Source: Saprospiraceae bacterium
GTDB taxonomy: Bacteria; Bacteroidota; Bacteroidia; Chitinophagales; Saprospiraceae
NCBI GenBank assembly: GCA_049306275.1
Contig: JBAQQB010000197.1
Location: 58,601-122,600 of the forward strand
Length of the DNA stretch: 64,000 bases
Direction of reading: 5' to 3'
The notes under the pieces were generated by a model. That model was not told the DNA's origin. It made no database searches and saw only the letters and a list, made by a program, of their open reading frames with translations. The stretch's first letter is position 1, and the number at the start of each line of letters is the position of its first letter. Shown in pieces: positions 2,814-61,658 of this stretch. Made by a program: the position numbers and the translations under genes.

Positions 2814-3716
2814 ATGAAATACCATTTAAACCACCTGAAGGAACTCGAGGCGGAATCCATTTTCGTCATTCGCGAGGTGGTCGCCCAATTTGAGCGGCCG
2901 GTCCTGCTGTTTTCCGGCGGTAAAGACTCCATCCTGCTGACCTGGCTGGCGCAGAAAGCCTTTCATCCGGCACGAATTCCCTTTCCCCTGCTGCATATCG
3001 ACACAGGACACAACTTCCCCGAAACCCTGACCTACCGCGATCAGCTGGTGGCTAAGCTCGGCGTGAAACTCCTCATCGGCTCCGTCCAGGAAGCGATCGA
3101 CAAGGGCCTTGTCGTCGAAGAAAAGGGCTACAACGCCAGCCGCAACAATATCCAGACCCAAACCTTGCTCGAAGCCCTGGAGCGTGGCAAATTCGACGCC
3201 GCCATGGGAGGCGGCCGCCGCGACGAGGAAAAGGCCCGCGCCAAAGAGCGCTTCTTCTCCCACCGCGACGAATTCGGGCAATGGGACCCCAAAAACCAGC
3301 GGCCCGAACTCTGGAACCTCTTCAACGGAAAAAAACACATCGGCGAGCACTTCCGCGTTTTCCCCATCAGCAACTGGACCGAACTCGACGTCTGGCAGTA
3401 CCTGCTCATGGAAAAAGTCGAGCTCCCGTCCCTCTACTTCACCCACCATCGCGACTGCTTCGTGCGCGACGGTGTCATCTACGCCGACTCCGAATACATC
3501 CGCAAGAAACCCGATGAGCGGGTCCAAAGCATGCAGATCCGCTTCCGCACCATCGGCGACATGACCTGCACCGGCGCCACCCTCTCCGACGCCGACACCC
3601 TCGAAAAGGTCGTGCAGGAAGTAGCCACCTCCCGCTACACCGAGCGCGGCACCCGCGCCGACGACAAGCGCTCCGAAACGGCGATGGAGGACAGGAAGAA
3701 GCAAGGATATTTCTAA
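2814..3716 (+). CDS. cysD: Sulfate adenylyltransferase subunit 2
   Basis: 300 aa with PP-loop LLFSGGKDSILL; CysD-typical C-terminus ...RAKERFFSHRDEFGQWDPKNQRPELW...EDRKKQGYF. Confidence 0.95.
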   Translation: MKYHLNHLKELEAESIFVIREVVAQFERPVLLFSGGKDSILLTWLAQKAFHPARIPFPLLHIDTGHNFPETLTYRDQLVAKLGVKLLIGSVQEAIDKGLVVEEKGYNASRNNIQTQTLLEALERGKFDAAMGGGRRDEEKARAKERFFSHRDEFGQWDPKNQRPELWNLFNGKKHIGEHFRVFPISNWTELDVWQYLLMEKVELPSLYFTHHRDCFVRDGVIYADSEYIRKKPDERVQSMQIRFRTIGDMTCTGATLSDADTLEKVVQEVATSRYTERGTRADDKRSETAMEDRKKQGYF

Positions 3717-3733
3717 GAGTTTATAAGTTTATG

Positions 3734-3767
3734 AGGGTATGAGTTTTTGAAGAAAAACTCATACCCT
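3734..3767 (+). repeat. Perfect 15-bp stem / 4-nt loop hairpin between cysD and cysN
   Basis: AGGGTATGAGTTTTT (3734-3748), loop GAAG, AAAAACTCATACCCT (3753-3767). Flanked by related words (GTTTATAAGTTTATGAG ... AAAAACTCAAAAACT). Confidence 0.85.
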
Positions 3768-3790
3768 TAAAAACTCAAAAACTATTAAAG

Positions 3791-5056
3791 ATGAACGAAA
3801 TCAATTATACCGACATGGAACTCCTGCGCTTCACCACAGCAGGAAGCGTGGACGACGGAAAGAGCACCCTCATCGGAAGGTTGCTGTACGATAGCAAGTC
3901 CATTCTGGAAGACCAATATGAAGCGGTGAAACTGAGCAGTGAGCGCAGGGGCGAAACCGAGGTCAACCTGGCCCTGCTGACCGACGGCCTCAAGGCGGAG
4001 CGTGAGCAGGGCATCACCATCGATGTGGCCTACCGCTATTTTTCCACCCCGAAGCGCAAGTTCATCATCGCAGATACGCCAGGTCATATCCAGTACACCC
4101 GCAATATGGTGACCGGCGCATCCACGGCCAACGTCGCGCTCATTCTGGTGGATGCGCGGCAAGGGGTGGTGGAGCAGACCCGCCGTCACGCCATCATCGC
4201 GTCCCTGCTCCAGATTCCACACATGGTGGTCTGCATCAACAAGATGGACCTGGTGAATTACGACGAGGAGAGATATGAGCAGATCCGCTACGAGTTCGAA
4301 AGCTTTGCTTCCAAGCTCGACGTGCACGACATTTCTTTTGTGCCTATCTCCGCCCTGCGCGGCGACAATGTGGTAGATCGCTCCGCCAACATGACCTGGT
4401 ATCAGGGCCCCACCCTGATGTACTACCTCGAAAACGTGCACATTGCCAGCGACCACAACTTCATCGACTGCCGCTTCCCTGTGCAGCTGGTGATCCGGCC
4501 CAATACCGACGACTACCACGACTACCGGGGTTATTCCGGACGGGTGGCAGGCGGAATTTTCAAGAAGGGCGACAAGGTGATGTTGCTGCCCAGCGGGTTC
4601 GCGTCCACCATTTCCCGCATCGAAACCTACGACGGTGAGGTGATGGAAGCCTTCCCGCCCATGTCGGTGACCATTTTGCTCGAAAACGACATCGACATCA
4701 GCCGTGGCGATATGATCGTCAGGGAAAACAACATCCCCGAAATCACCCAGGATGTGGACGTGATGATCTGCTGGTTCAACGAGCGGCCGCTGCAACTGAA
4801 CGGGAAATACGCCCTTCGCCACACGACCCAGGAAATGCGCTGCGTGGTGAAAGATATTCGCTATAAATTGGACATCAACACATTGCATAGAAATCTGGTG
4901 GACAAGGAGATCAAGATGAACGACATTGCGCGGATTGCTCTCCGTACTACCAAACCCATTTTCGCCGATTCATACCGCAAGAACCGCATAACCGGGAGCC
5001 TGATCCTGGTCGATGAAGGGACGAACGAAACGGTCGGAGCCGGTATGATCATTTAA
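3791..5056 (+). CDS. cysN: Sulfate adenylyltransferase subunit 1 (GTPase)
   Basis: 421 aa. G1 GSVDDGKST, G3 DTPGH, G4 NKMD. No fused APS-kinase domain. Confidence 0.95.
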   Translation: MNEINYTDMELLRFTTAGSVDDGKSTLIGRLLYDSKSILEDQYEAVKLSSERRGETEVNLALLTDGLKAEREQGITIDVAYRYFSTPKRKFIIADTPGHIQYTRNMVTGASTANVALILVDARQGVVEQTRRHAIIASLLQIPHMVVCINKMDLVNYDEERYEQIRYEFESFASKLDVHDISFVPISALRGDNVVDRSANMTWYQGPTLMYYLENVHIASDHNFIDCRFPVQLVIRPNTDDYHDYRGYSGRVAGGIFKKGDKVMLLPSGFASTISRIETYDGEVMEAFPPMSVTILLENDIDISRGDMIVRENNIPEITQDVDVMICWFNERPLQLNGKYALRHTTQEMRCVVKDIRYKLDINTLHRNLVDKEIKMNDIARIALRTTKPIFADSYRKNRITGSLILVDEGTNETVGAGMII

Positions 5057-35651: not shown

Positions 35652-37487
35652 ATGGCTGATATCATTCAGCTTTTACCTGATTCGATCGCCAATCAGATCG
35701 CCGCGGGGGAAGTCATACAGCGCCCGGCATCTGTGGTGAAGGAATTGGTGGAGAATTCGATCGATGCAGGAGCGACTACTGTCAAATTGATTCTCAAGGA
35801 CGCCGGCAAGACCCTGATTCAGGTAGTCGACGATGGCTGCGGCATGTCGGAGACGGATGCGCGGATGAGTTTTGAGCGGCATGCCACCTCCAAAATCCGG
35901 CAGGCGGCCGATCTTTTCTCGATCCGCACCATGGGTTTCCGGGGAGAAGCGCTGGCCTCGATCGCGGCTATCGCGCAGGTGGAAATGCGCACCCGCAGGC
36001 ACTCCGAGGAGCATGGCACGCGCCTCATCGTGGAAGGATCGGAGATCAAGGTGCAGGAGCCTTTCTCCACCTCGGCAGGTACGAGTATTTCGGTGAAAAA
36101 CCTTTTCTACAACGTGCCCGCCCGCCGCAACTTCCTCAAGAGCAACCCTGTGGAATACCGCCATGTGCTCGACGAGTTCCAGCGCATTGCCATCGCCAAT
36201 CCCGATATTTTCTTCTCCCTTCACCACGATGGGCGGGAGGAGTACCATCTTCCTGGCTCCAACCTCCGGCAGCGCCTGGTGGGCGTATTTGGTGGCAACG
36301 CCAACAAGAAGCTGGTGCCGCTCAATGAGGAGACCGACATCCTGACCTTGTACGGGTTTGTAGGCAAGCCCGAATTCGCCAAGAAAACCAGGGGAGAGCA
36401 GTATTTTTTCGTCAACAAGCGCTACATCAAGAGCAGCTATCTCAACCACGCGGTGGTGATGGCTTATGAGGAGTTGCTGCCGAAGGAAACTTATCCGCTG
36501 TATGCCGTGTTTATCGATATCGACCCGGCGCGCATCGACGTCAACGTGCATCCGACCAAGCAGGAGATCAAGTTCGAGGATGAGCGGCTGGTGTACAACT
36601 ATCTGAAGGTTGCCATACGGCATGCCCTGGGCCGGCACAGCATCACCCCGACGCTCGATTTCGACCAGGAGCCGAGCATTACCAGGGCTTCCGCGATGAA
36701 GCCCAACCTGTTTCCGGAGCACAATCCCCGTCCACCTGCCCCTCCTTCTTCCTCCTCCAATTTGATGAACTGGCAGAAGCTATACCAGGGGCTGGAGCGG
36801 CCCAGGGAAGATGCGCCCCTGCCCCACGGCGCCGAAACAGAACCGGAGGGACCCATCACCATCGAGAGCGCCTGGGCCGGACAGCAGGAGATCGACGATG
36901 GGGCGGGCAGTTTTCAAAAACAACAGCGGGAGCCCTATCAATTGCACACATCCTATATTGTGAGCCCCATCAAGTCGGGATTTTTGCTCATCGACCAGCA
37001 GGCGGCCCATGAGCGCATTTTGTATGAAAAATTCCTGATGGCCTTGGAGGAGGACATCATTCACACGCAGCAGGAGCTTTTTCCGCGCAATATCGAATTG
37101 TCGCCAGCCGATGCGAGCCTGCTCAAGCAGATACTACCGGAGATCCACCAATTGGGCTTCGACATACAGGAATTCGGGCAAACGAGCTTTGTAATCCACG
37201 GCCTGCCTGCCGATTTTCCGCCAGGGCAGGATGAGCAGGCCATCATCGAATCGCTGCTGGAGCAGTTCAAGCAGAATGTGGAGCTCAAGCTGCACCTGCG
37301 CGACAACCTGGCCAGGGTGATGGCCCGCAGCGCCGCCATCAAGCGGGGGCAGCCGCTGACCGTGCAGGAGATGCAGTCGCTCATCGACCAGCTCTTCGCC
37401 TGCGCGGCGCCGTTTCATAGCCCTTCGGGGCGGCAGTGCTTTTTGACTTATTCGCTTGAGGAAATCGAGAAAAAACTATCTTCATAA
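35652..37487 (+). CDS. mutL: DNA mismatch repair protein MutL
   Basis: 611 aa. GHKL ATPase N-terminus LPDSIANQIAAGEVIQRPASVVKELVENSIDAGAT. C-terminal DQQAAHERILYE. Confidence 0.95.
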   Translation: MADIIQLLPDSIANQIAAGEVIQRPASVVKELVENSIDAGATTVKLILKDAGKTLIQVVDDGCGMSETDARMSFERHATSKIRQAADLFSIRTMGFRGEALASIAAIAQVEMRTRRHSEEHGTRLIVEGSEIKVQEPFSTSAGTSISVKNLFYNVPARRNFLKSNPVEYRHVLDEFQRIAIANPDIFFSLHHDGREEYHLPGSNLRQRLVGVFGGNANKKLVPLNEETDILTLYGFVGKPEFAKKTRGEQYFFVNKRYIKSSYLNHAVVMAYEELLPKETYPLYAVFIDIDPARIDVNVHPTKQEIKFEDERLVYNYLKVAIRHALGRHSITPTLDFDQEPSITRASAMKPNLFPEHNPRPPAPPSSSSNLMNWQKLYQGLERPREDAPLPHGAETEPEGPITIESAWAGQQEIDDGAGSFQKQQREPYQLHTSYIVSPIKSGFLLIDQQAAHERILYEKFLMALEEDIIHTQQELFPRNIELSPADASLLKQILPEIHQLGFDIQEFGQTSFVIHGLPADFPPGQDEQAIIESLLEQFKQNVELKLHLRDNLARVMARSAAIKRGQPLTVQEMQSLIDQLFACAAPFHSPSGRQCFLTYSLEEIEKKLSS

Positions 37488-37489
37488 AA

Positions 37490-37553
37490 GTTTATGAGTT
37501 TACAGGGTCAGGAGTTTATTCATCACAACTCCTACCCCTATAAACTCATAAAC
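37490..37553 (+). repeat. 26-bp imperfect hairpin between mutL and the first rhomboid gene
   Basis: GTTTATGAGTTTACAGGGTCAGGAGT (37490-37515) pairs with ACTCCTACCCCTATAAACTCATAAAC (37528-37553) at 23 of 26 positions; 12-nt loop. Starts 2 nt after the mutL stop. Shares GTTTATGAG / AAACTCATA words with the 3734 hairpin. Confidence 0.8.
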
Positions 37554-37573
37554 ATATAAACTTCAAAAGAAGT

Positions 37574-39269: not shown

Positions 39270-40340
39270 ATGCAGAAATCCCTGCTGAACAAACTTTTCC
39301 GCTGGGGTAACGTCGTTTTGATCCTTTTTACCTTGCTGGTCTACCTCGTTCCCCAGGTGCATCCCAAGACCTTCTGGCCCATGGCCCTGCTTGGTCCTTC
39401 CTATCCTTGGCTCTTGCTCGCCCACGCCGTCTTCATCGGCTTCTGGATCGTGGCCCGCAAAGCCTACTTCCTGATGTCGCTGACCTGTGTGGCGCTGGGC
39501 TGGGCCTTTTTCTCCGCCACTTTCTCCTTCAAACTGCCGCGATCTGGAGAGGATGCCGATTTCAGGGCGATGAGCTACAACGTCAACATGCTCCAGATGA
39601 TCATGGGCAACGACGAAGAGTTGGCGGCGAAGAAACAGGCGGCTTTTTCCAGCTTCATGGCTTCAGTTGAGCCGCTGGATGTGCTGTGCACCCAGGATTG
39701 CTCGAAAAAGTTCTCCAACTGGCTGGAAAGGCGGCTCAAATTTCCCCATTCCTATAATGTACTGGGCACATCCATCCTGAGCCGGCACCCCTTCCTGGCC
39801 ACAGGCGTCATCGAATTCGAGGAGTCGACCAATTCGGTCGTATGGGCAGATATTGAGGTAAAGGGACAAAGACTCCGGGTCTTCAGCGTGCACCTGCAAT
39901 CCAACAGCATTACGACAGATGCGGCACGGCTCAAGAATAGCGGCGACCTGCAGGATCGCGAAACCTGGGTTGGAGTCAAGGGTATTTTGCGCAAATACCG
40001 GAATGCCACCAAAAAGCGGTCGGATCAGGTGGAGCTGCTTGCCGGCCATATCAGCCAAAGTCCTTACCCGGTTGTGGTATGCGGCGATTTCAACGACACG
40101 CCGGTCTCGTTCGTTTACCGCTACATGATGGAAACGGTCAAGCTGAAAGACAGTTTCAAAGAGGCGGGCTCAGGGGCCGGCTTTACATACGGAGGCATCC
40201 TTCCCGCTCTCCGCATCGACTACATATTCACCGACCCCGGGCTGACCGTGCTCAACCACGACCGGTTCAAAAAGCCCTATTCCGACCATTTTCCCGTGCT
40301 TTGTGAAATCGATATCTTACCTTTGCGGCCTGAAAAATGA
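39270..40340 (+). CDS. Membrane-anchored endonuclease/exonuclease/phosphatase (EEP) family protein
   Basis: 356 aa. N-terminal TM segments, EEP C-terminal motif YSDHFPVLCEI. Begins 1 nt after the rhomboid stop. Confidence 0.8.
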   Translation: MQKSLLNKLFRWGNVVLILFTLLVYLVPQVHPKTFWPMALLGPSYPWLLLAHAVFIGFWIVARKAYFLMSLTCVALGWAFFSATFSFKLPRSGEDADFRAMSYNVNMLQMIMGNDEELAAKKQAAFSSFMASVEPLDVLCTQDCSKKFSNWLERRLKFPHSYNVLGTSILSRHPFLATGVIEFEESTNSVVWADIEVKGQRLRVFSVHLQSNSITTDAARLKNSGDLQDRETWVGVKGILRKYRNATKKRSDQVELLAGHISQSPYPVVVCGDFNDTPVSFVYRYMMETVKLKDSFKEAGSGAGFTYGGILPALRIDYIFTDPGLTVLNHDRFKKPYSDHFPVLCEIDILPLRPEK

Positions 40341-41851
40341 ACTTGATGAGAACAGAACTTCGCGTTTTCAACACCCTGACTGATCAGAAGGAACTTTTCG
40401 AGCCCCTGCACGAAGGCCACGTGGGTATGTACGTGTGCGGGCCCACCGTATACAGCGATGTGCATCTGGGCAATTGCCGCACATTCATCAGCTTCGACAT
40501 CATCTTCCGCTACCTGACGCACCTGGGCTACAAAGTGCGCTACGTGCGCAACATCACCGACGTGGGCCACCTGGAAGGCGATGCCGACACCGACGCGGAG
40601 GACAAGATTGCCAAGAAGGCCCGCTTGGAGGAACTGGAGCCTATGGAGATCGTGCAGCGGTATTCCAACGGCTTTCACGACATGATGCGCCTGTTCAACG
40701 TGTTGCCGCCCAGCATAGAGCCGCGCGCTACGGGGCATATCATCGAGCAGATCGAAATGGTGCAGGCCATCCTCGACAACGGCTATGCCTATGTGGAGAA
40801 CGGCTCGGTCTATTTCGATACCGTGAAGCTACTCAACGAGCGGCAGGGGGTGTATGGAAAATTGTCGGGAAAAAAGCCGGAAGATCTTTTGTCTGATACT
40901 CGCGACAACCTGAAGAAGCAGGACGAAAAACACAGTCCCATAGACTTTGCCATCTGGATCAAGGCCGATCCCTCCCACCTGATGCGCTGGAACTCGCCCT
41001 GGTCGGTCGGTTTTCCGGGCTGGCACCTGGAGTGCTCGGCGATGAGCACCAAATACCTCGGGAAGACCTTCGACATCCACGGCGGGGGCTACGACCTGAA
41101 GTTTCCGCACCACGAAAACGAGATCGCCCAGAGCCACGGGGCTTGCAGTTGCTCCCCTGCCCGCTACTGGCTGCACGGCAATATGCTCATGCTCAACGGC
41201 AGCAAGATGTCGAAGAGCACGGGCAATACCATTACGCCGGTGCAATTGCTCACGGGCGACAGTCCGCACGTCAGCAAGGGGTACAGCCCGATGGTGGTGC
41301 GTTTCTTCATGTTGCAATCTCACTACCGCAGTACGCTCGACATGACCGATGAGGCGCTACAGGCGGCCGAAAAAGGCTATCGCCGGATGATGGAGGCCCA
41401 TGCGACGCTTCAGGCCTTGCAGCACCCGGGCGGGGGCAAGTCGGGGGCTCTCGACCAGGAGATCAAGGATCTGATCGATGCGGTCTATGACGAGATGAAC
41501 GACGATTTCAACACGCCCCGTGCGCTGGCGCGCCTGTTCGAGCTCGTCACGAAGATCAACGCGCTCAAGGGCGGGCAGCTATCCTTTGCCGAGGTGCTGC
41601 CGGAGACCCTGGAGCAGCTGAAGCATACCTTCCACACGTTCCTTTTCGATGTATTCGGCCTCAGGGACGAAGCGGCTTCCGACAGCAATACCGAGCTGCT
41701 CGACGGCCTGATGCAGCTCATCATCGAAATGCGCAAGGAAGCGCGGGAGCGCAAGGACTGGCCGACCTCCGACAAGATCCGCGATGCCCTGAAGGAGTTG
41801 CATGTACAGCTGAAGGATGGGAAGGAAGGGACTACGTGGGGTGTGGAGTAG
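40337..41851 (+). CDS. cysS: Cysteine--tRNA ligase
   Basis: 504 aa. YVCGPTVYSDVHLGNCRT (HIGH-type) and GSKMSKSTGN (KMSKS). ATGA overlap with the EEP gene. Confidence 0.95.
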   Translation: MNLMRTELRVFNTLTDQKELFEPLHEGHVGMYVCGPTVYSDVHLGNCRTFISFDIIFRYLTHLGYKVRYVRNITDVGHLEGDADTDAEDKIAKKARLEELEPMEIVQRYSNGFHDMMRLFNVLPPSIEPRATGHIIEQIEMVQAILDNGYAYVENGSVYFDTVKLLNERQGVYGKLSGKKPEDLLSDTRDNLKKQDEKHSPIDFAIWIKADPSHLMRWNSPWSVGFPGWHLECSAMSTKYLGKTFDIHGGGYDLKFPHHENEIAQSHGACSCSPARYWLHGNMLMLNGSKMSKSTGNTITPVQLLTGDSPHVSKGYSPMVVRFFMLQSHYRSTLDMTDEALQAAEKGYRRMMEAHATLQALQHPGGGKSGALDQEIKDLIDAVYDEMNDDFNTPRALARLFELVTKINALKGGQLSFAEVLPETLEQLKHTFHTFLFDVFGLRDEAASDSNTELLDGLMQLIIEMRKEARERKDWPTSDKIRDALKELHVQLKDGKEGTTWGVE

Positions 41852-41976
41852 CAAGCATTAAATTGTTGGTTGTCAACAGGCTAGTTTTTTCTCTTTGGGA
41901 GCAAGGGGGAGATGTTCTTTGTTTTTGTTGGAGGAAATATGCACTTTGACAAGGTTCTTACCGCAGTTATTTTTGG

Positions 41977-42010
41977 GACGCGGATGACGCGGGTGCTTCG
42001 CAACGCGGAT
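41977..42010. repeat. Left arm of the 34-bp inverted repeat flanking the GxxExxY gene
   Basis: GACGCGGATGACGCGGGTGCTTCGCAACGCGGAT. Reverse-complementary to 42427-42460 at 31 of 34 positions; the inner 17 bp are perfect. Confidence 0.9.
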
Positions 42011-42036
42011 TTTGAATTGGAAAAGCTGTGAGGAGA

Positions 42037-42426
42037 ATGGATTTGCTACATAGAGATTTGACGGAAGGGATACTGAAGGCCTTTTTTGCGGTTTACAATG
42101 AACTCGGTTTTGGCTTTCTGGAAAGGGTATACCAAAATGCCTTATTCCTGGAATTAAAGGCTAGAGGATATGAGGTTGAGGTTCAAAAACCTATTCGTGT
42201 CATATATAAAGGCGTGCATGTTGGAGAGTACTATGCAGATATGGTTGTGAATGGACAGGTAATTCTGGAACTCAAGGCTGCATCTGCCATTATTCCGGAA
42301 TTTGAAAACCAGTTAGTGAACTACCACAGAGGAACGGAAATAGAAGTTGGATTGCTCCTGAATTTTGGGAAGAGCCCGCAGTTTAAAAGGAGAGTATTCG
42401 AAAATATAAGGAAAAGCCTTCGGTAG
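42037..42426 (+). CDS. GxxExxY protein (PD-(D/E)XK nuclease-like superfamily)
   Basis: 129 aa from ATG 42037. GFLERVY matches GxxExxY, followed by a YYADMVV...ILELK core. Visibly lower GC than its neighbours. Confidence 0.85.
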   Translation: MDLLHRDLTEGILKAFFAVYNELGFGFLERVYQNALFLELKARGYEVEVQKPIRVIYKGVHVGEYYADMVVNGQVILELKAASAIIPEFENQLVNYHRGTEIEVGLLLNFGKSPQFKRRVFENIRKSLR

Positions 42427-42460
42427 ATCCGCGTTGCGAAGCATCCGCGTTATCCGCGTG
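42427..42460. repeat. Right arm of the 34-bp inverted repeat flanking the GxxExxY gene
   Basis: ATCCGCGTTGCGAAGCATCCGCGTTATCCGCGTG begins on the base after the TAG stop (42424-42426). Confidence 0.9.
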
Positions 42461-42469
42461 CAAAAAATA

Positions 42470-43000
42470 TCAAGTTCTGTATAACATCCACTGCCAGATA
42501 TCCCCGTCGTCGGGGTCGAAGAGTTCGGCGGTTTTATGCAGGCCGCATTTTCGCAGTACACTGCAGGACGGGTTTAAGTGCGCCAGGGTGTGAGCCTTGA
42601 TGGCTTTCACCTCCGCAAACCCGAAAGCGTAGTCGATGAGGCCTTGGGCGAGCTCGGTAGCAAGCCCCAGGCCCCGGAATTCGCTCGTGATCTCATAACC
42701 GATCTCCACGATGCCATCCTTGTCGGGCGGACCCTTGTAGCCACAACTGCCGATGAGCACTTTTTCCTGTTTCAGGATGGGAAGGTAGGTCCACCAAATC
42801 ACCTCATCCGGGTTTTCTCTTACTCTTTCAAGAGAGAAGCGGAAAATAGGGTCGCCATATTCTGTCCAGAGGAGTGGCACCCTGACGCCGAGCAACTTCC
42901 CCAGAGATTTGTCGCCCCGCAAAACGGCTTCCAGCACGGGCTGGGTACCGAGCACCAGGAACATCCGCGACGTTTCGATAAAAGGGAATTCCATCCGCAT
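42470..43000 (-). CDS. GNAT family N-acetyltransferase (RimJ/RimL-like)
   Basis: Start placed at ATG 43000 (MRMEFPFIETSRMFL); the ORF is open to 43063. FRGLGLATELAQGLIDYAF acetyl-CoA motif. Confidence 0.75.
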   Translation of the reverse strand: MRMEFPFIETSRMFLVLGTQPVLEAVLRGDKSLGKLLGVRVPLLWTEYGDPIFRFSLERVRENPDEVIWWTYLPILKQEKVLIGSCGYKGPPDKDGIVEIGYEITSEFRGLGLATELAQGLIDYAFGFAEVKAIKAHTLAHLNPSCSVLRKCGLHKTAELFDPDDGDIWQWMLYRT

Positions 43001-43073
43001 GCGATTTTTGAGATCAGTGCTTTCAACCCCAAATATAACATTCGGCAAACGGCTCCCAAGCATTTTAGAAAAT

Positions 43074-50085: not shown

Positions 50086-50091
50086 GTATTC

Positions 50092-50155
50092 AGTGAAGGG
50101 TGAAGGGTGAAGGGTGAAGGGATTTCTCTTCACCCTTCACCCTTCACTCTTCACT
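50092..50155 (-). repeat. 28-bp hairpin of four GTGAAGG heptamers and their complement, between mnmG and wzx
   Basis: 50092-50119 pairs with 50128-50155 (27 Watson-Crick pairs plus 1 G-U), with an 8-nt loop GGATTTCT. It lies 2 nt from the mnmG stop and 6 nt from the wzx ATG. No T-tract. Confidence 0.9.
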
Positions 50156-50157
50156 AA

Positions 50158-52023
50158 TTATCGTCCCATATGCACCAGCAAAATAGAAATATCCGCCGGT
50201 GAGACGCCGCTGATGCGGCTGGCCTGGCCGATGGTGCGGGGGCGCACTTTGGAGAGCTTCTCGCGGGCCTCTTTCGACAGGGAACCCAGTTGGCGGTAGT
50301 CGAAGTCGTCGAAGATACGCACCTCTTCGAGGCGGTTCATCTTGTCGACCATCTCCTGCTCTTTTTTGATGTAGCCCTCGTACTTGATGTTGATCTCCGC
50401 CAGCTCGGCAAATTCGGGCTCGTACTGCCCCAGGAATTCGTCGAGTGCGGGCAGGGCTTCGCGAAGGTCCTGAATGCCGATATTAGGGCGCAGCAGCACG
50501 GGCAGGAGCTTGACCTTCTGCTTGAGCAGGGCTGATTCCTTTGCTTCGAGCACGGGGTTGAGGTCTTCGGGATTGACGCTCGTTTCCTGGAAATATTTTT
50601 CAATGGCCACCGCGGCTTCCTGCTTGGCGCGCACGCGGTCCATGCGCTCTTCCAGTCCTTGCATGCCGATCTTTTCGGCCAGGGGGGTGAGGCGCAGGTC
50701 GGCATTGTCCTGGCGCAGCAGAATGCGGTATTCGGCGCGGGAGGTGAACATGCGGTAGGGTTCCTGGGTGCCTTTGTTGACCAGGTCGTCGATCAGCACG
50801 CCGATGTAGGCTTCCGAGCGTTTGAGGATGAAGGGTTCCTGCTCGTTGACGGCCAGGTGGGCGTTGATGCCGGCCATGAGGCCCTGGCAGCCCGCTTCTT
50901 CATAACCCGTGGTGCCGTTGATCTGCCCTGCGAAAAACAGGTTCTTCACCCGGTGGGTCTCCAGGGAGAGGCTCAGCTGGTCGGGCGGGAAAAAGTCGTA
51001 TTCGATGGCGTAGCCGGGGCGGAACATTTTGGCGTTCTCCAGCCCCGGGATCATGCGCAGGGCTTTGTATTGCACGTCTTCCGGCAACGAGGAGGAGAAG
51101 CCGTTGATGTAGATCTCGCAAGTATCCCAGCCCTCGGGTTCGATGAAGAGCTGGTGCCTGTCGCGGTCGGCGAATCGGTCGATCTTGTCTTCGATGGAGG
51201 GGCAATAGCGCGGGCCCAGGCCCTGGATTCGGCCGTTGAACATGGGCGAGCGGTCGAAGCCGGTGCGCAGCATGTCGTGCACTTCCTGGTTGGTGTAGGT
51301 GATATAGCAGGGCAGTTGCTTGGTGATCTTCGGCGTGTCGGTGTAAGAAAATTTTCCGCCTTCCGGATCGCCATCCTGCACCTCCATGCGGCTGTAGTCG
51401 ATGGTGCGGCCGTCGATGCGGGGTGGGGTGCCGGTCTTCATGCGCCCTGATTCAAAGCCCAGTTCGATGAGTTGCTCGGTGATACCTTTGGCGGCTTTTT
51501 CGCCGGCGCGCCCGCCCCCGAGTTGCTTCTCGCCGATGTGGATAATGCCGTTGAGGAAGGTGCCGTTGGTGAGGACCACTGCCTTTCCTGGTATCTCCAG
51601 CCCCATGCCCGTGCGCACGCCGCGCACCACGCCGTCTTTGACGACCAGCCCGCTGACCATCTCCTGCCAGAAGTCGATGTTGGGGTGGGCTTCCAGCATC
51701 TGCCGCCACTTGGCGGCAAAGCGCATGCGGTCGCTCTGGGCGCGCGGGCTCCACATGGCCGGCCCTTTCGAGCGGTTGAGCATGCGGAACTGCACCATGG
51801 TATGGTCGGTGACAATGCCGGAATAGCCGCCCAAGGCGTCGATCTCGCGCACGATCTGGCCTTTGGCCACGCCGCCCATGGCGGGGTTGCACGACATCTG
51901 CGCGATGGTCTGCATGTTCATCGTCACGAGCAACACCTTCGAGCCCATGTTGGCGGCCGCGGCGGCAGCTTCACAGCCGGCATGACCGGCCCCCACTACA
52001 ATCACATCGTATTCCGGGAACAT
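50158..52023 (-). CDS. mnmG: tRNA uridine 5-carboxymethylaminomethyl modification enzyme
   Basis: 621 aa. YDVIVVGAGHAGCEAA FAD motif and full-length GidA layout. Confidence 0.96.
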   Translation of the reverse strand: MFPEYDVIVVGAGHAGCEAAAAAANMGSKVLLVTMNMQTIAQMSCNPAMGGVAKGQIVREIDALGGYSGIVTDHTMVQFRMLNRSKGPAMWSPRAQSDRMRFAAKWRQMLEAHPNIDFWQEMVSGLVVKDGVVRGVRTGMGLEIPGKAVVLTNGTFLNGIIHIGEKQLGGGRAGEKAAKGITEQLIELGFESGRMKTGTPPRIDGRTIDYSRMEVQDGDPEGGKFSYTDTPKITKQLPCYITYTNQEVHDMLRTGFDRSPMFNGRIQGLGPRYCPSIEDKIDRFADRDRHQLFIEPEGWDTCEIYINGFSSSLPEDVQYKALRMIPGLENAKMFRPGYAIEYDFFPPDQLSLSLETHRVKNLFFAGQINGTTGYEEAGCQGLMAGINAHLAVNEQEPFILKRSEAYIGVLIDDLVNKGTQEPYRMFTSRAEYRILLRQDNADLRLTPLAEKIGMQGLEERMDRVRAKQEAAVAIEKYFQETSVNPEDLNPVLEAKESALLKQKVKLLPVLLRPNIGIQDLREALPALDEFLGQYEPEFAELAEINIKYEGYIKKEQEMVDKMNRLEEVRIFDDFDYRQLGSLSKEAREKLSKVRPRTIGQASRISGVSPADISILLVHMGR

Positions 52024-57666: not shown

Positions 57667-57721
57667 GATGAGAAGATGAGAAGGTGAGAAGGTGAAAATC
57701 CACTTTTCACCTTCTCACCTT
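57667..57721 (-). repeat. Four tandem octamers (GATGAGAA x2, GGTGAGAA, GGTGAAAA) forming an 18-bp perfect hairpin between polA and lpxD
   Basis: AAGGTGAGAAGGTGAAAA (57681-57698), loop TCCAC, TTTTCACCTTCTCACCTT (57704-57721). It lies 7 nt from the polA stop and 8 nt from the lpxD ATG. Confidence 0.9.
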
Positions 57722-60536: not shown

Positions 60537-60577
60537 TTCCGGGAGAATGCGGTTTCCCGGCAAGATAAGGAAATAAT

Positions 60578-60667
60578 AGTGGAGAGTGGAGAGTTGAGAG
60601 TGGAGTGGAAAGCTTTTTGGCTTTGCCAAAAAGGCTTCACTTCACACTCAACTCTCACCTCTCCACT
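60578..60667 (-). repeat. About 90-nt imperfect hairpin of GTGGAGA/GTTGAGA words between the DUF3078 gene and polA
   Basis: Left arm 60578-60612 and right arm 60635-60667 are largely complementary. A perfect inner 8-bp stem CTTTTTGG / CCAAAAAG (60613-60620 / 60626-60633) tops the structure. The right arm abuts the DUF3078 stop codon. Confidence 0.8.
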
Positions 60668-61658
60668 AAAAAATAAGATTGTACTTAATAAACAACCCTT
60701 GCATAAAGCTGACCGCCGGCATCAGTTCCGCGCGTTGTTCGCCGGGGGGGAGGTTGACGTCGGCGGCGGCTTCGCCGTAGATACCGTCGTCGTCGAGGTC
60801 GGTTTGTACGTTGACGTCGTCGTCGTAGAAGAGGTTGGTGACGAGGTTAATCGACAGGTTTTTGACGATCTGCACACTGAGGTCGTTGGTCCAGAGCACG
60901 TCGATATTCTGGGGGTTTTCGAGGTAGTTGGAGAAGAGATCGAGGGCGCTGGCCCAGCTGATCCGGTCTTTGAGGAACTTGTTGGCGTAGGCGGCCTTGA
61001 GGTTGGAGCCCAGCATAAGGAAGCTGTTTTCGCCCGGTTTGTTGCCATGTACGTTGAGGGCTGCGATGGAGTCGTTGCCCACGTAGATCAGCTTGAGGGA
61101 AACGGGCGAGTAGAGGAAGGTGAGGTGCTCGTTCAATTTATATTCCAAACCCGGCGACACGATGACCTGTACCGGAGAGAAGAACCTGGCGATGGGCTGG
61201 ACGTTTTCCTCTGCCGGTTTGAGGATATTGCCCGGATAGGTGGGGAGCAGCAGGGTAATGGCGTCTGCTTCCACTGCGCCGTATAGTTTGCCCTGGCCGG
61301 GGCGGAAGCTGGCTCGGGAGGTGAGGCGGAGCACGTCGATGTTTTTCTCAAAGGGTTTATTTCTGCCGCCGATCCGCTGGGTGCCCAATTGCAGGGAGCC
61401 GGTGTTGTTCCAGGCGAATTTTTCCTTTTTGTAGTTGGCGGCAAAATTGGCCAGGCCTGCGAAGCCGATGCGGTTGGCGCCGGCGCCTACGCGGGGGTTG
61501 ATGAGGGCCATCTGAGCGAAGTCGAGGCCCAGGCCGCCGACGTAGGTCCAGGGCTTTTCCGGCTCAGCCTGTTCTGCGGCTGCGGCATCCTGGCTAAAGA
61601 CCGGGTTCCAGAGCGTGGCGAAGATGATTGCGCAAAAGAGGAGTAGTCCTTTTTTCAT
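60666..61658 (-). CDS. DUF3078-like outer-membrane beta-barrel protein
   Basis: 330 aa with signal peptide. PWTYVGGLGLDFAQ...FAWNNTGSLQLG pattern. Confidence 0.55.
   Translation of the reverse strand: MKKGLLLFCAIIFATLWNPVFSQDAAAAEQAEPEKPWTYVGGLGLDFAQMALINPRVGAGANRIGFAGLANFAANYKKEKFAWNNTGSLQLGTQRIGGRNKPFEKNIDVLRLTSRASFRPGQGKLYGAVEADAITLLLPTYPGNILKPAEENVQPIARFFSPVQVIVSPGLEYKLNEHLTFLYSPVSLKLIYVGNDSIAALNVHGNKPGENSFLMLGSNLKAAYANKFLKDRISWASALDLFSNYLENPQNIDVLWTNDLSVQIVKNLSINLVTNLFYDDDVNVQTDLDDDGIYGEAAADVNLPPGEQRAELMPAVSFMQGLFIKYNLIF

Follow-up and report, generated by a model that had tools for sequence, protein, structure and literature searches.

A GxxExxY nuclease gene between word-built inverted arms is present or absent as a unit at a cysS-GNAT gene junction in a Saprospiraceae bacterium and its relatives

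A GxxExxY gene located between cysS and a convergent GNAT acetyltransferase gene is enclosed by inverted repeat arms that are part of the gene's own unit rather than of the site in the host. We analyzed a 64-kb stretch of DNA from a Saprospiraceae bacterium (the window), together with GxxExxY loci from other genomes, and found that the cassette of arms and gene is present or absent as a unit at this junction and that the arm-gene design is conserved across phyla. Arms and gene are very probably one unit, and the cassette was likely gained or lost as a block. Inverted repeats flanking GxxExxY genes are not mentioned in the literature that could be searched, which took in few subscription journals, and this apparently self-contained cassette seems not to have been described previously.

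The arms are the longest and the top-scoring inverted repeat found in a repeat search of the whole window. The sequence-only reading had described arms of 34 nt (41977-42010 and 42427-42460) that match at 31 of 34 positions and have a perfect inner 17 nt, with the right arm starting directly after the TAG stop codon (42424-42426) and the left arm ending 26 nt before the ATG. All of this was confirmed, and the repeat was found to extend to 43 nt on each side (39 of 43 positions complementary, 91%), with 416 nt enclosed. Exact copies of CGCGGAT number two in the left arm, which also has one CGCGGGT, and three in the right arm. The probability of a 17-nt perfect match arising by chance in the cassette flanks is ~1e-6. 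The ORF is AT-rich, as had been judged by eye, with a GC content of 41.0%, whereas the window as a whole has 55.2%, cysS 58.2%, and the GNAT gene 54.2%; at third codon positions, the ORF has 42% GC and cysS 81%. The features of the locus are summarized in Table 1.

Table 1. Cassette and neighboring genes at the cysS-GNAT junction, in window coordinates.
Feature	Coordinates	Strand	Description
cysS (cysteine--tRNA ligase)	40337..41851	+	Pfam tRNA-synt_1e, E 1.5e-98; co-oriented with and upstream of the cassette
Whole insert, 618 nt	41852..42469	+	Comprises the leader, both arms, the spacer, and the ORF; not present in the empty allele (L095)
AT-rich leader, 116 nt, 40.5% GC	41852..41967	+	Inside the indel, outside the conserved element; locus-specific
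Terminator-like hairpin, then T-rich tail	41887..41912	+	Within the leader; consensus scan only
Promoter-like site, TTGACA-16-TATTTT	41945..41975	+	Consensus scan, 10/12 match
Left arm	41968..42010	+	TATTTTTGG-GACGCGGAT-GACGCGGGT-GCTTCGCA-ACGCGGAT; word spacing 9-10 nt
Spacer, 26 nt	42011..42036	+	Shine-Dalgarno-like GAGGAGA right before the ATG
GxxExxY (PDDEXK_3) gene, 390 nt, 129 aa	42037..42426	+	Pfam and NCBIfam profiles
Right arm	42427..42469	+	ATCCGCGT-TGCGAAGC-ATCCGCGTT-ATCCGCGTG-CAAAAAATA; last base 1 before the GNAT stop codon
GNAT acetyltransferase gene	42470..43063	-	Pfam Acetyltransf_3 and Acetyltransf_1; convergent with the cassette; the indel ends on the right at its stop codon

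Candidate transcription signals were predicted upstream of the ORF. The hairpin in the leader is possibly a terminator for cysS. The promoter-like site also fits the Bacteroidota type (TTTG, 19 nt, TATTTTTG), and its -7 box would be the outer 8 nt of the left arm. Sequence comparison of GxxExxY loci revealed no homologue of the spacer in other elements, and there was no match to Rfam at the window locus.

Other hairpins in the window are also built of stuttered words (at 3709, 37485, 50087, 57673, and 60577), and all of them adjoin stop codons. The claim that the cassette arms have the same construction held for the stuttering but not for the words, which are GTGAAGG, GAGAAGGT, GTGGAGA, and GTTTATGA in these hairpins, none with CGCGGAT. 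There was no ORF-less hairpin copy with CGCGGAT within the 64 kb, and no REP-like population is thus apparent in the source genome, at least locally.

The enclosed gene encodes a protein of the GxxExxY family with a predicted PD-(D/E)XK nuclease fold. This assignment, and the placement of the gene between cysS (+) and the GNAT gene (-), had been proposed from the sequence and were verified with profiles PF13366 (PDDEXK_3; 129.2 bits, cut-off 22, E 1e-37) and TIGR04256 (GxxExxY; 126 bits, cut-off 35, E 9e-37). PDDEXK_3 was the sole Pfam match, and there was no transposase domain in the ORF. Without exception, 25 homologues share the defining residues of the motif G26-x-x-E29-x-x-Y32 and those of the nuclease triad (D68, E78, K80). 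An AF2 model (pLDDT ~74; 73.8) has elements in the order alpha-alpha-beta-beta-beta-alpha-beta, and its best Foldseek matches, which were weak (E ~3e-3, TM ~0.5), were to Cas4 SSO0001, Hjc resolvases, and AdnAB nuclease domains. A search of PDB sequences gave a chance match only and no relative, and the protein has no specific sequence or structural similarity to I-Ssp6803I. The dN/dS values between orthologues are 0.09-0.13; the protein is under purifying selection. There are fused two-domain versions, suggesting that the enzyme works as a dimer on symmetric sites, and the small encoded nuclease is probably dimeric. There was no match to the window protein in PADLOC, PHROGs, or GenBank phages, and a search of plasmids yielded 8 records only, all of them non-mobilizable chromid-like replicons. 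The family is large (13,036 clusters at 50% identity match the window protein), and PDDEXK_3/GxxExxY was entered as 'unknown' in a survey of PD-(D/E)XK proteins (PMC3424549).

Comparison with relatives revealed an empty allele and a second filled allele at the same junction. In L095 (96.6% amino acid identity in CysS and 92% in GNAT), cysS and the GNAT gene are 6 nt apart, with neither arms nor gene between them, and the junction reads cysS-TAG, ACTATT, and TCAAGTTCTG (the GNAT stop codon). The cysS genes are 92.6% identical (nucleotides) as far as the stop codon, which is the left border of the indel; the blastn alignment of the window to L095 ends at 41851 and restarts at 42467. An empty site, which the sequence-only reading had proposed to look for in related strains, is thus found at exactly this junction, but in L095 it has neither arms nor a hairpin. 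The proposal that the gene had inserted into a pre-existing hairpin therefore finds no support at this site. The second filled allele, in L103 (CysS 86% identical), is a diverged cassette with a protein that is 77% identical, an ORF that is ~70% identical, and near-identical arms: the left arm is 81% identical over the full 43 nt, and a 33-nt arm core has 91-97% identity to the two L103 arms (blastn). Synonymous sites between the window and L103 are saturated (pS 0.92), and the dN of 0.18 fits vertical descent and double gain alike. Other Saprospirales (L091-L094, L096, L265-L267) have other genes 3' of cysS and are therefore uninformative for this junction.

The borders of the indel do not coincide with the arms on the left. 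The 116-nt leader is inside the indel, so the left arm is not its exact end. We rejected the leader as a part of the element; it has no detectable similarity to any other GxxExxY locus, and the leader in L103 is 44 nt and unlike it. The suggestion that the repeats are the termini of a small mobile unit is thus upheld in that arms and gene form one unit, but not in that the left arm would be a terminus of the inserted DNA. No target-site duplication was found at the indel borders of this one filled/empty pair. CAAG is at both borders, yet the 6 nt of the empty site are unlike the product of a simple excision. Among contigs with the exact protein or a 99%-identical variant, context and orientation were the same in 22 of 22 sampled, and there is thus no sign of recent transposition in the window lineage.

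Arms like those in the window flank most of the other GxxExxY genes sampled. Looser scoring detected flanking inverted arms at 58 of 80 loci from other genomes, and in at least 27 of 40 independent genomic contexts. With a stricter cut-off (up/down inverted-repeat score of at least 13), 53 of 79 loci had arms compared to 0 of 79 shuffled controls, and the window scored 33-35. The right arm begins no more than 6 nt from the stop codon in 34 of the 58 elements. The words belong to the family RCRCRGAT, with copies 9 nt (75 times) or 10 nt (32 times) apart. A common consensus at the outer ends is T-G-GAAC-RCGGAT-GA-CRCGGAT, so that an arm pair opens with T-G-GAAC... and closes with ...GTTC-C-A. 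The same arm sequence is found beside GxxExxY genes in unrelated contexts and phyla, and the design recurs around this gene family in many phyla. When metagenomes were sampled from the arm side, 7 arm pairs had 250 nt or more between them, and 6 of these held a GxxExxY gene. In Flavobacterium, many cassettes are at orthologous sites across species, indicating long vertical residence rather than active movement. L089 has two 93%-identical paralogues that are 1.3 kb apart; in this locus and in L149 and L268, the gene is between hairpins or direct arm copies and not within one hairpin. There was no recombinase gene adjoining the window cassette or the sampled loci, and none in the 20-kb window locus.

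The type of word in the arms follows the GxxExxY protein subgroup. Members of subgroup A (the window, Gemmatirosa copy 1, Treponema, and Fusobacteria; 41-54% identity) have GGAT words, and members of subgroup B (B. finegoldii, Bernardetia, and Gemmatirosa copy 2; 50-56% identity) have CAGAG words. The two subgroups occur together on one Gemmatirosa replicon, where each copy has the words of its subgroup.

Arms of this kind are more numerous without an ORF than with one, and then form solo hairpins, single arms, or arrays. In the metagenome sample, solo hairpins and single arms accounted for 53 and 69 arm hits, compared to 7 pairs. ORF-less copies are found beside ORF-bearing ones in L050 (3407-3525), L012 (2800-2917), and L061, and are also present in L269; tandem arrays are found in L048 and L074. 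The same arms surround an AbiJ_NTD4 gene in L116 (1078-2423), and an AbiH gene is beside an arm on the contig of L122. The arms around the AbiJ-like gene and the many single arms indicate that arms can occur without a GxxExxY nuclease nearby. Rfam searches with solo hairpins gave sub-threshold matches only, to eukaryotic miRNA precursors. Separately, a gene for another small nuclease, DUF559, is inside an unrelated 44-nt inverted repeat (L076, 239-752).

We tentatively favor, at slightly less than even confidence, a reading in which 41852-42469 is an inserted cassette with a PD-(D/E)XK nuclease gene between its own arms, similar to REP/RAYT systems or to homing genes. The arms, each with 2-4 phased copies of RCRCRGAT 9-10 nt apart, would be the site in cis on which the encoded nuclease acts, with the enzyme binding the phased words of both arms, or a hairpin or cruciform formed by the arms, and then cutting there. 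Repair or copying after the cut would spread or maintain hairpins, and occasionally the ORF-bearing version. The logic would be that of REP/REPIN sequences with a RAYT gene, or that of a free-standing homing endonuclease that uses the arms as repair homology. The specific step in which the nuclease acts on its own arms is possible but doubtful. In favor of this reading are the family-wide design, the predominance of GxxExxY in arm pairs from metagenomes, the match of word type to subgroup, the filled and empty alleles at the junction, the ORF-less copies beside ORF-bearing ones, the invariant catalytic residues and purifying selection, the fused versions, the low GC at third codon positions, and the close paralogues in L089. 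The lack of a target-site duplication or exact ends, the leader outside the arms, the fixed context, the lack of other CGCGGAT hairpins in the window, the orthologous sites in Flavobacterium, the arms without this nuclease nearby, the arm arrangement in L089, L149, and L268, and the co-orientation with neighboring genes count against it. A more general proposal, which we consider somewhat unlikely, is that GxxExxY nucleases would be the dedicated enzymes of an unrecognized cross-phylum class of hairpin-borne elements with subgroup-specific words of 9-10 nt, in which the ORF-bearing hairpin would be autonomous, the ORF-less palindromes would be non-autonomous derivatives or homing targets, and the arms would provide homology for copying.

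An unlikely, but not negligible, explanation is that the arms function in RNA. The cassettes are located just 3' of the stop codon of a co-oriented gene: the upstream neighbor has the same orientation in 54 of 56 cases and the downstream neighbor in 47 of 51, with a median of 30 nt between the upstream stop codon and the left arm. Such strong co-orientation is no less compatible with a function in the transcript than with one at the level of DNA. If so, the gene would be expressed by read-through from the upstream gene, and a stem of ~40 bp formed by the arms would loop out the ORF for processing (for example, by RNase III), insulation of the host operon, or control of translation of the nuclease. 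The target of the nuclease would be elsewhere, and the arms would make the insertion tolerated. In ~10 of the 58 elements, the left arm ends 2-6 nt 5' of the ATG, leaving no room for an internal promoter. We rejected a conserved internal promoter as a family feature, as a TAnnTTTG box was present upstream in 12 of the 58 elements, at no fixed position, and absent in 46. In addition, the right arm adjoins the stop codon in most elements, and the minimum-energy RNA fold of 41960-42478 includes the long-range arm stem (z = -6.9). However, the mismatches between arms do not have the spectrum expected for pairing of the sense strand: there was no excess of G-U over A-C (96 versus 100 overall; 41 versus 37 for isolated mismatches), and more than half of the mismatches are unable to pair. 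In the window, the outer end of the left arm is shared with the promoter-like site, and the direct or outward arms in L089, L149, and L268 could not close a loop around the ORF. The tandem phased words and the match between word type and subgroup would also be left unexplained.

Less probable still, the arms might be moved in trans by another enzyme (a recombinase or transposase) or by host recombination, with GxxExxY as the commonest passenger, perhaps a defense or toxin gene. The Abi genes in or beside the same arms, the DUF559 gene in its own type of repeat, and the large excess of solo hairpins and single arms over ORF-bearing pairs are consistent with this. It is difficult to reconcile with the predominance of GxxExxY in the unbiased metagenome sample of arm pairs, the switch of word type with subgroup within one replicon, the lack of an adjoining recombinase gene in the window or at the sampled loci, and the lack of matches to the window protein in the defense and phage collections searched. 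We consider it very improbable that the repeat flips the gene relative to outside promoters as a phase-variable switch. Bacteroidota are known for invertible regions, and a 43-nt inverted repeat around a 416-nt segment could serve this purpose, but a single orientation was found in the 22 contigs of the lineage and in L103, the orientation relative to neighbors is constant in 54 of 56 elements, and there is no recombinase gene in the vicinity. We therefore rejected inversion, as none of the sampled contigs had the opposite orientation. The chance that cysS and the GNAT gene each have one of the arms as a separate terminator, or that the repeat is a fortuitous match, is negligible. The arms are at the 3' ends of two convergent genes, and the window's other stuttered hairpins adjoin stop codons, but neither arm has a substantial hairpin within it (a scan found only a 5-bp stem, at 41997-42009), both arms are missing from L095, and in other phyla and contexts the gene is accompanied by the same arm sequence. 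The shuffled controls and the low probability of the 17-nt perfect match argue against chance. The sequence-only reading had named a lack of flanking repeats around other paralogues, a lack of empty alleles, and independent terminators as outcomes that would count against it; we examined all three, and none held.

The cassette resembles several known systems in part. The properties of REPINs and RAYTs used here are partly from PMC3116915 and PMC3337134. As in those systems, short palindromic repeats stand in inverted orientation on either side of one small gene of nuclease type; the repeats appear to be commoner without the gene (as hairpins or pairs) and match the gene lineage in type; and residence at orthologous sites is long and mostly vertical, with purifying selection. 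In contrast to RAYTs, the cassette enzyme has a predicted PD-(D/E)XK fold and is not a Y1 HUH (IS200/IS605-like) transposase, and unlike REP sequences, the arms are 20-60 nt of tandem phased words of 9-10 nt with no GTAG or CGTC tag. There is no local population of matching hairpins in the window, and the GxxExxY family is multi-copy and found across phyla at 55-77% identity, implying horizontal transfer.

Free-standing homing endonucleases include those encoded by the seg and mob genes of T-even phages, and I-Ssp6803I is a PD-(D/E)XK homing enzyme. Like such genes, the cassette has a small nuclease gene set between conserved host genes and following their orientation (at fabD|fabG, radA|next gene, and proB|next gene in other genomes, and at cysS|GNAT here), a clean empty allele in a close relative (L095), and a composition foreign to the host. 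We know of no homing genes with long word-built inverted arms or ORF-less hairpin copies, both of which are found here, and cleavage of the empty site by the cassette enzyme is putative.

Intervening sequences in 23S rRNA can contain an ORF of the S23p (four-helix-bundle) family, a multi-copy orphan family abundant in Bacteroidota and cyanobacteria. They share with the cassette an ORF within a long inverted-repeat stem, insertion in the sense orientation in a transcribed region, sporadic distribution, and a multi-copy orphan protein family abundant in those two groups. The cassette differs in that it is in an intergenic mRNA spacer between protein-coding genes and not in an rRNA helix, encodes a nuclease and not a four-helix bundle, and has a mismatch spectrum without an RNA signal. 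With MITEs and insertion sequences, the cassette shares terminal inverted repeats, short ORF-less derivatives, and presence or absence as a block, but it has no DDE or other known transposase and no detected target-site duplication, its arms are internally repetitive, and its orientation relative to host genes is extremely biased. We also rejected an integron cassette. The attC consensus is RYYYAAC ... GTTRRRY, which the outer ends of the arms, (A/T)TGGAAC and GTTCCA(T/A), do not fit, and the neighbors are cysS, GNAT, glycosyltransferase, and MoxR genes.

The link between arms and gene provides an orphan family with a concrete cis-partner, consisting of a defined DNA word and an arm architecture, and it comes with a second word type, which could be used for specificity swaps, and a natural filled/empty pair. 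Should the nuclease act on the arms, the cassette would offer a second, mechanistically unrelated route to the life style of REP/RAYT systems, or else a novel type of homing element, and its enzyme, at just 125 residues, would be specific for a structure or a word. Should the stem instead work at the RNA level, the cassette would be to mRNA what the intervening sequences are to rRNA. If there is indeed a class of hairpin-borne elements, an orphan family of ~13,000 sequence clusters would gain a function, and the origin of the long palindromes of repeated words found next to stop codons in Bacteroidota genomes might be explained. Whichever reading is correct, the arms are overlooked by present genome annotation and yield spurious small ORFs.

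The gene for the 129-aa GxxExxY nuclease lies between two inverted arms that are the top inverted repeat of the entire 64 kb. Sequence reading and a repeat finder agreed on the arms (43 nt each, 39/43 positions matching, separation 416 nt). The 34-nt core reported in the sequence-only reading was confirmed (31/34 matches, inner 17 nt perfect), with the right arm starting on the base after the TAG stop and a 26-nt gap separating the left arm from the ATG at 42037. That reading had also called the ORF an AT-richer GxxExxY gene between cysS (+) and a GNAT gene (-), and all of this held: GC was 41.0% in the ORF versus 55.2% in the window, GC3 was 42% versus 81% in cysS, and the ORF matched the profiles TIGR04256 GxxExxY (E 9e-37) and PF13366 PDDEXK_3 (E 1e-37). 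The observation is real. A Shine-Dalgarno-like GAGGAGA is 2 nt ahead of the ATG (window 42013-42036), which is unusual since, to our knowledge, such sites are mostly absent from Bacteroidota.

Features of the cassette and other intergenic palindromes in the window
Feature	Position	Strand	Basis or remark
Insert relative to L095	41852-42469	+	618 nt
AT-rich leader		+	116 nt, outside left arm, part of indel; comparison with L095
Terminator-like hairpin in leader	41887-41912	+	motif scan
Promoter-like site, leader region	41945-41975	+	motif scan
Left arm	41968-42010	+	sequence reading and repeat finder
Right arm	42427-42469	+	sequence reading and repeat finder
Other intergenic palindromes	3709-3792, 37485-37558, 50087-50160, 57673-57721, 60577-60668		arms 18-40 nt

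The cassette block behaves as a discrete unit. The window comes from a Saprospirales/Saprospiraceae MAG, and 25 contigs carried its protein, either unchanged or as a 99%-identical variant, with the same context and orientation in all those inspected. A metagenome contig, L095 (CysS 96.6% and GNAT 92% aa identity to the window), reads cysS-TAG, ACTATT, GNAT stop at this junction, with no arms, gene or hairpin. L103, from a more distant relative (CysS 86%), carries a cassette at the same junction in the same orientation (protein 77%, ORF ~70% nt and arm cores 91-97% identical), and in further relatives different genes follow cysS. Given the tree ((window +, L095 -), L103 +), either L095 lost the cassette or there were two gains at one spot; synonymous sites are saturated between the window and L103, so these are not separable, and the block behaves as a unit under both. 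The empty L095 allele, which has no hairpin, argues against a pre-existing hairpin at this junction, into which, under one mechanism, the gene would have inserted before homing. The central idea of the sequence-only reading, a cassette of selfish appearance with repeats of its own at either end, survived all three tests set for it (repeats at other GxxExxY loci, an empty allele in relatives, and arms that are not terminators of the two neighbors). No homologue of the 116-nt leader was found among other GxxExxY elements.

Similar arms flanked GxxExxY genes elsewhere. We compared 200 nt upstream with 150 nt downstream of each ORF in 80 GxxExxY loci on contigs from one genome per species. Scores for inverted repeats reached 13 or more at 53/79 loci and, after shuffling, at 0/79; looser scoring gave arms in 58 elements, which covered no fewer than 27 of the 40 independent flank contexts. 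Beyond being inverted repeats of each other, the arms drew on one word family throughout (CGCGGAT, CACGGAT, CACAGAT, CGCTGAT, AACGGAT), at a spacing of 9 nt in 75 cases and 10 nt in 32, with a common consensus, T-G-GAAC, at the outer arm end. In 34/58 elements, the right arm had its inner end no more than 6 nt from the stop codon. Hosts included all major Bacteroidota classes, Ignavibacteriota, and three gammaproteobacterial MAGs. Judged from these flanks, the arms belong to the gene. In Sphingomonas parapaucimobilis (L272, 1450-1878), a GxxExxY gene lies between fabD and fabG of a conserved fatty-acid operon, with CGCGAAGG words upstream and 3 nt from its stop codon to the fabG start.

More distant members, taken from PLSDB replicons, extended the pattern. 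A Treponema locus had a perfect 11-bp ACACGGATTCG repeat, a Fusobacteria locus had ATCCGTGT copies at either side of the gene, and Gemmatirosa copy 1 had a GACGCGGAT hairpin downstream. A second subgroup (Bacteroides finegoldii, Bernardetia, and Gemmatirosa copy 2; 50-56% identity internally, 36-42% to the first) had arms of 28-32 nt made of CAGAG words. Because one Gemmatirosa replicon holds both subgroups, each with its own word, word type tracks the protein and not the host in this small sample of seven loci, in which Gemmatirosa copy 2 is frameshifted.

The window protein was 64-77% identical to 25 homologues from several Bacteroidota classes and Ignavibacteriota, and G26, E29, Y32, D68, E78 and K80, which make up the GxxExxY motif and the classical D...ExK nuclease triad, were invariant among them. 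An AlphaFold model (pLDDT 74) arranged the helices and strands in the order expected; the model's top structural matches, Cas4 SSO0001 and archaeal Hjc resolvases, were weak (E ~3e-3, TM ~0.5). The protein had no sequence relatives among solved structures and no match in PADLOC, PHROG or GenBank phages. Its family is very large, as 13,036 clusters (50% identity) matched at E <= 1e-3. The existence of tandem two-domain GxxExxY proteins of 250-270 aa (P0241-P0245, P0265 and others) suggests a dimeric enzyme. Purifying selection (dN/dS 0.09-0.13) and cassettes at orthologous positions in Flavobacterium species show that the protein serves some purpose that is retained, which places it closer to RAYT genes than to a decaying selfish remnant.

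Arms were also sampled without reference to the gene. Scanning metagenome contigs for the pattern GAACRCRGATRACRCRGAT gave 120 loci with 146 arm hits: 53 in ORF-less hairpins, 69 single arms, 7 in pairs enclosing at least 250 nt, and 17 too near a contig end. A GxxExxY gene was inside 6/7 of the enclosing pairs; at one further locus, L149, it lay between two complete hairpins. At L089, two paralogues (93% identity, 1.3 kb apart) were each flanked by hairpins, neither of them inside one. ORF-less hairpins or tandem arrays of the same words adjoined ORF-bearing ones at five loci (L012, L048, L050, L061, L074), including arrays of at least 8 hairpin units with a period of ~95-110 nt directly adjoining the gene (L048 2240-2997, L074 3547-4408). 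On viral contigs, GxxExxY was never alongside the same pattern. One IMG/VR contig had arms of the ACGCGGAT word family around a 277-aa AbiJ_NTD4 gene (L116 1078-2423) and an AbiH gene beginning 134 nt past another such arm (L122 682-2040). A phage-like contig family carried a single four-word arm, TAGAACGCAGATGACGCAGATAGAACGGATTTACACAGAT, without a partner (L110 1719-1756; also L113, L115, L117, L119, L125, L127, L132, L134, L137, L138, L140 and L142); the arm precedes, by ~70 nt, a conserved gene (162 aa) with no Pfam match. Composite intergenic islands (L126 260-810, L141 6860-7900, L120 1500-1640) had GGAT-word arms around nested palindromic modules, e.g., tcccgatagctatcggga and cattgcgagggaggcacgaccgcggcaatc. 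On an unrelated metagenome contig (L161 155-330), a single three-word arm (MLKIYNTLTRKKEEF...) was ~170 nt upstream of cysS, possibly a coincidence with the context in the window.

Weighing the transcript-side, protein-DNA, and selection and orthology findings together, we tentatively favor a cognate nuclease that would act on its own arms in a REP/RAYT-like or homing-like manner. The tandem words spaced by about one helical turn, the symmetrical arms, the co-variation of word type with protein subgroup, the fused-dimer forms, and the many ORF-less copies all point to such a protein-DNA link. Action of the stem at the RNA level seems rather unlikely. In its favor, cassettes were co-oriented with the upstream gene in 54/56 cases (p = 6.5e-7 versus an assumed 70% baseline), the median distance from the upstream stop codon was 30 nt, and the long-range stem dominated the predicted RNA fold (z = -6.9); against it, arm mismatches had no sense-strand G-U preference (96 versus 100; isolated mismatches 41 versus 37) and arm orientations of some members could not close a loop. 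We consider it improbable that the arms are a generic vehicle with GxxExxY as a passenger, highly improbable that the cassette is an invertible switch, and scarcely credible that the arms are independent terminators or due to chance.

Among known systems, REP/REPIN-RAYT is the closest match to the geometry of the cassette, which nevertheless lacks the defining Y1 HUH transposase and GTAG/CGTC tag. Like free-standing homing endonuclease genes, the cassette shows filled/empty polymorphism and sits between conserved genes; like ORF-bearing rRNA intervening sequences, it has its ORF within a stem. It failed the tests for integron attC sites and for an invertible segment, and had neither the transposase nor the target duplication of IS/MITE elements. 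No Rfam family covers the hairpins. A 2012 survey of PD-(D/E)XK proteins (PMC3424549) entered the GxxExxY family as 'unknown', and it was mentioned elsewhere in passing only. We did not find its association with inverted repeats described in the literature covered, which was incomplete, and an earlier description is possible.

The sequence-only reading had likened the arms to the other intergenic hairpins of the window. Stuttered words are indeed common to them, but each of the five palindromes has its own 7-8-nt word (GTTTATGA-like, GTGAAGG, GAGAAGGT, GTGGAGA) and CGCGGAT is in none. All five begin a few bases at most from a stop codon, with stems far exceeding ordinary terminator length, and hairpins like these with yet other words were seen at L020, L029, L049, L050 and L082. 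At another locus (L076 239-752), a DUF559 nuclease gene (125 aa, E 4e-28) is within an unrelated 44-nt inverted repeat of CCCCAGCCCCTCC-type sequence, and from this case a small nuclease gene within a hairpin may be a wider pattern.
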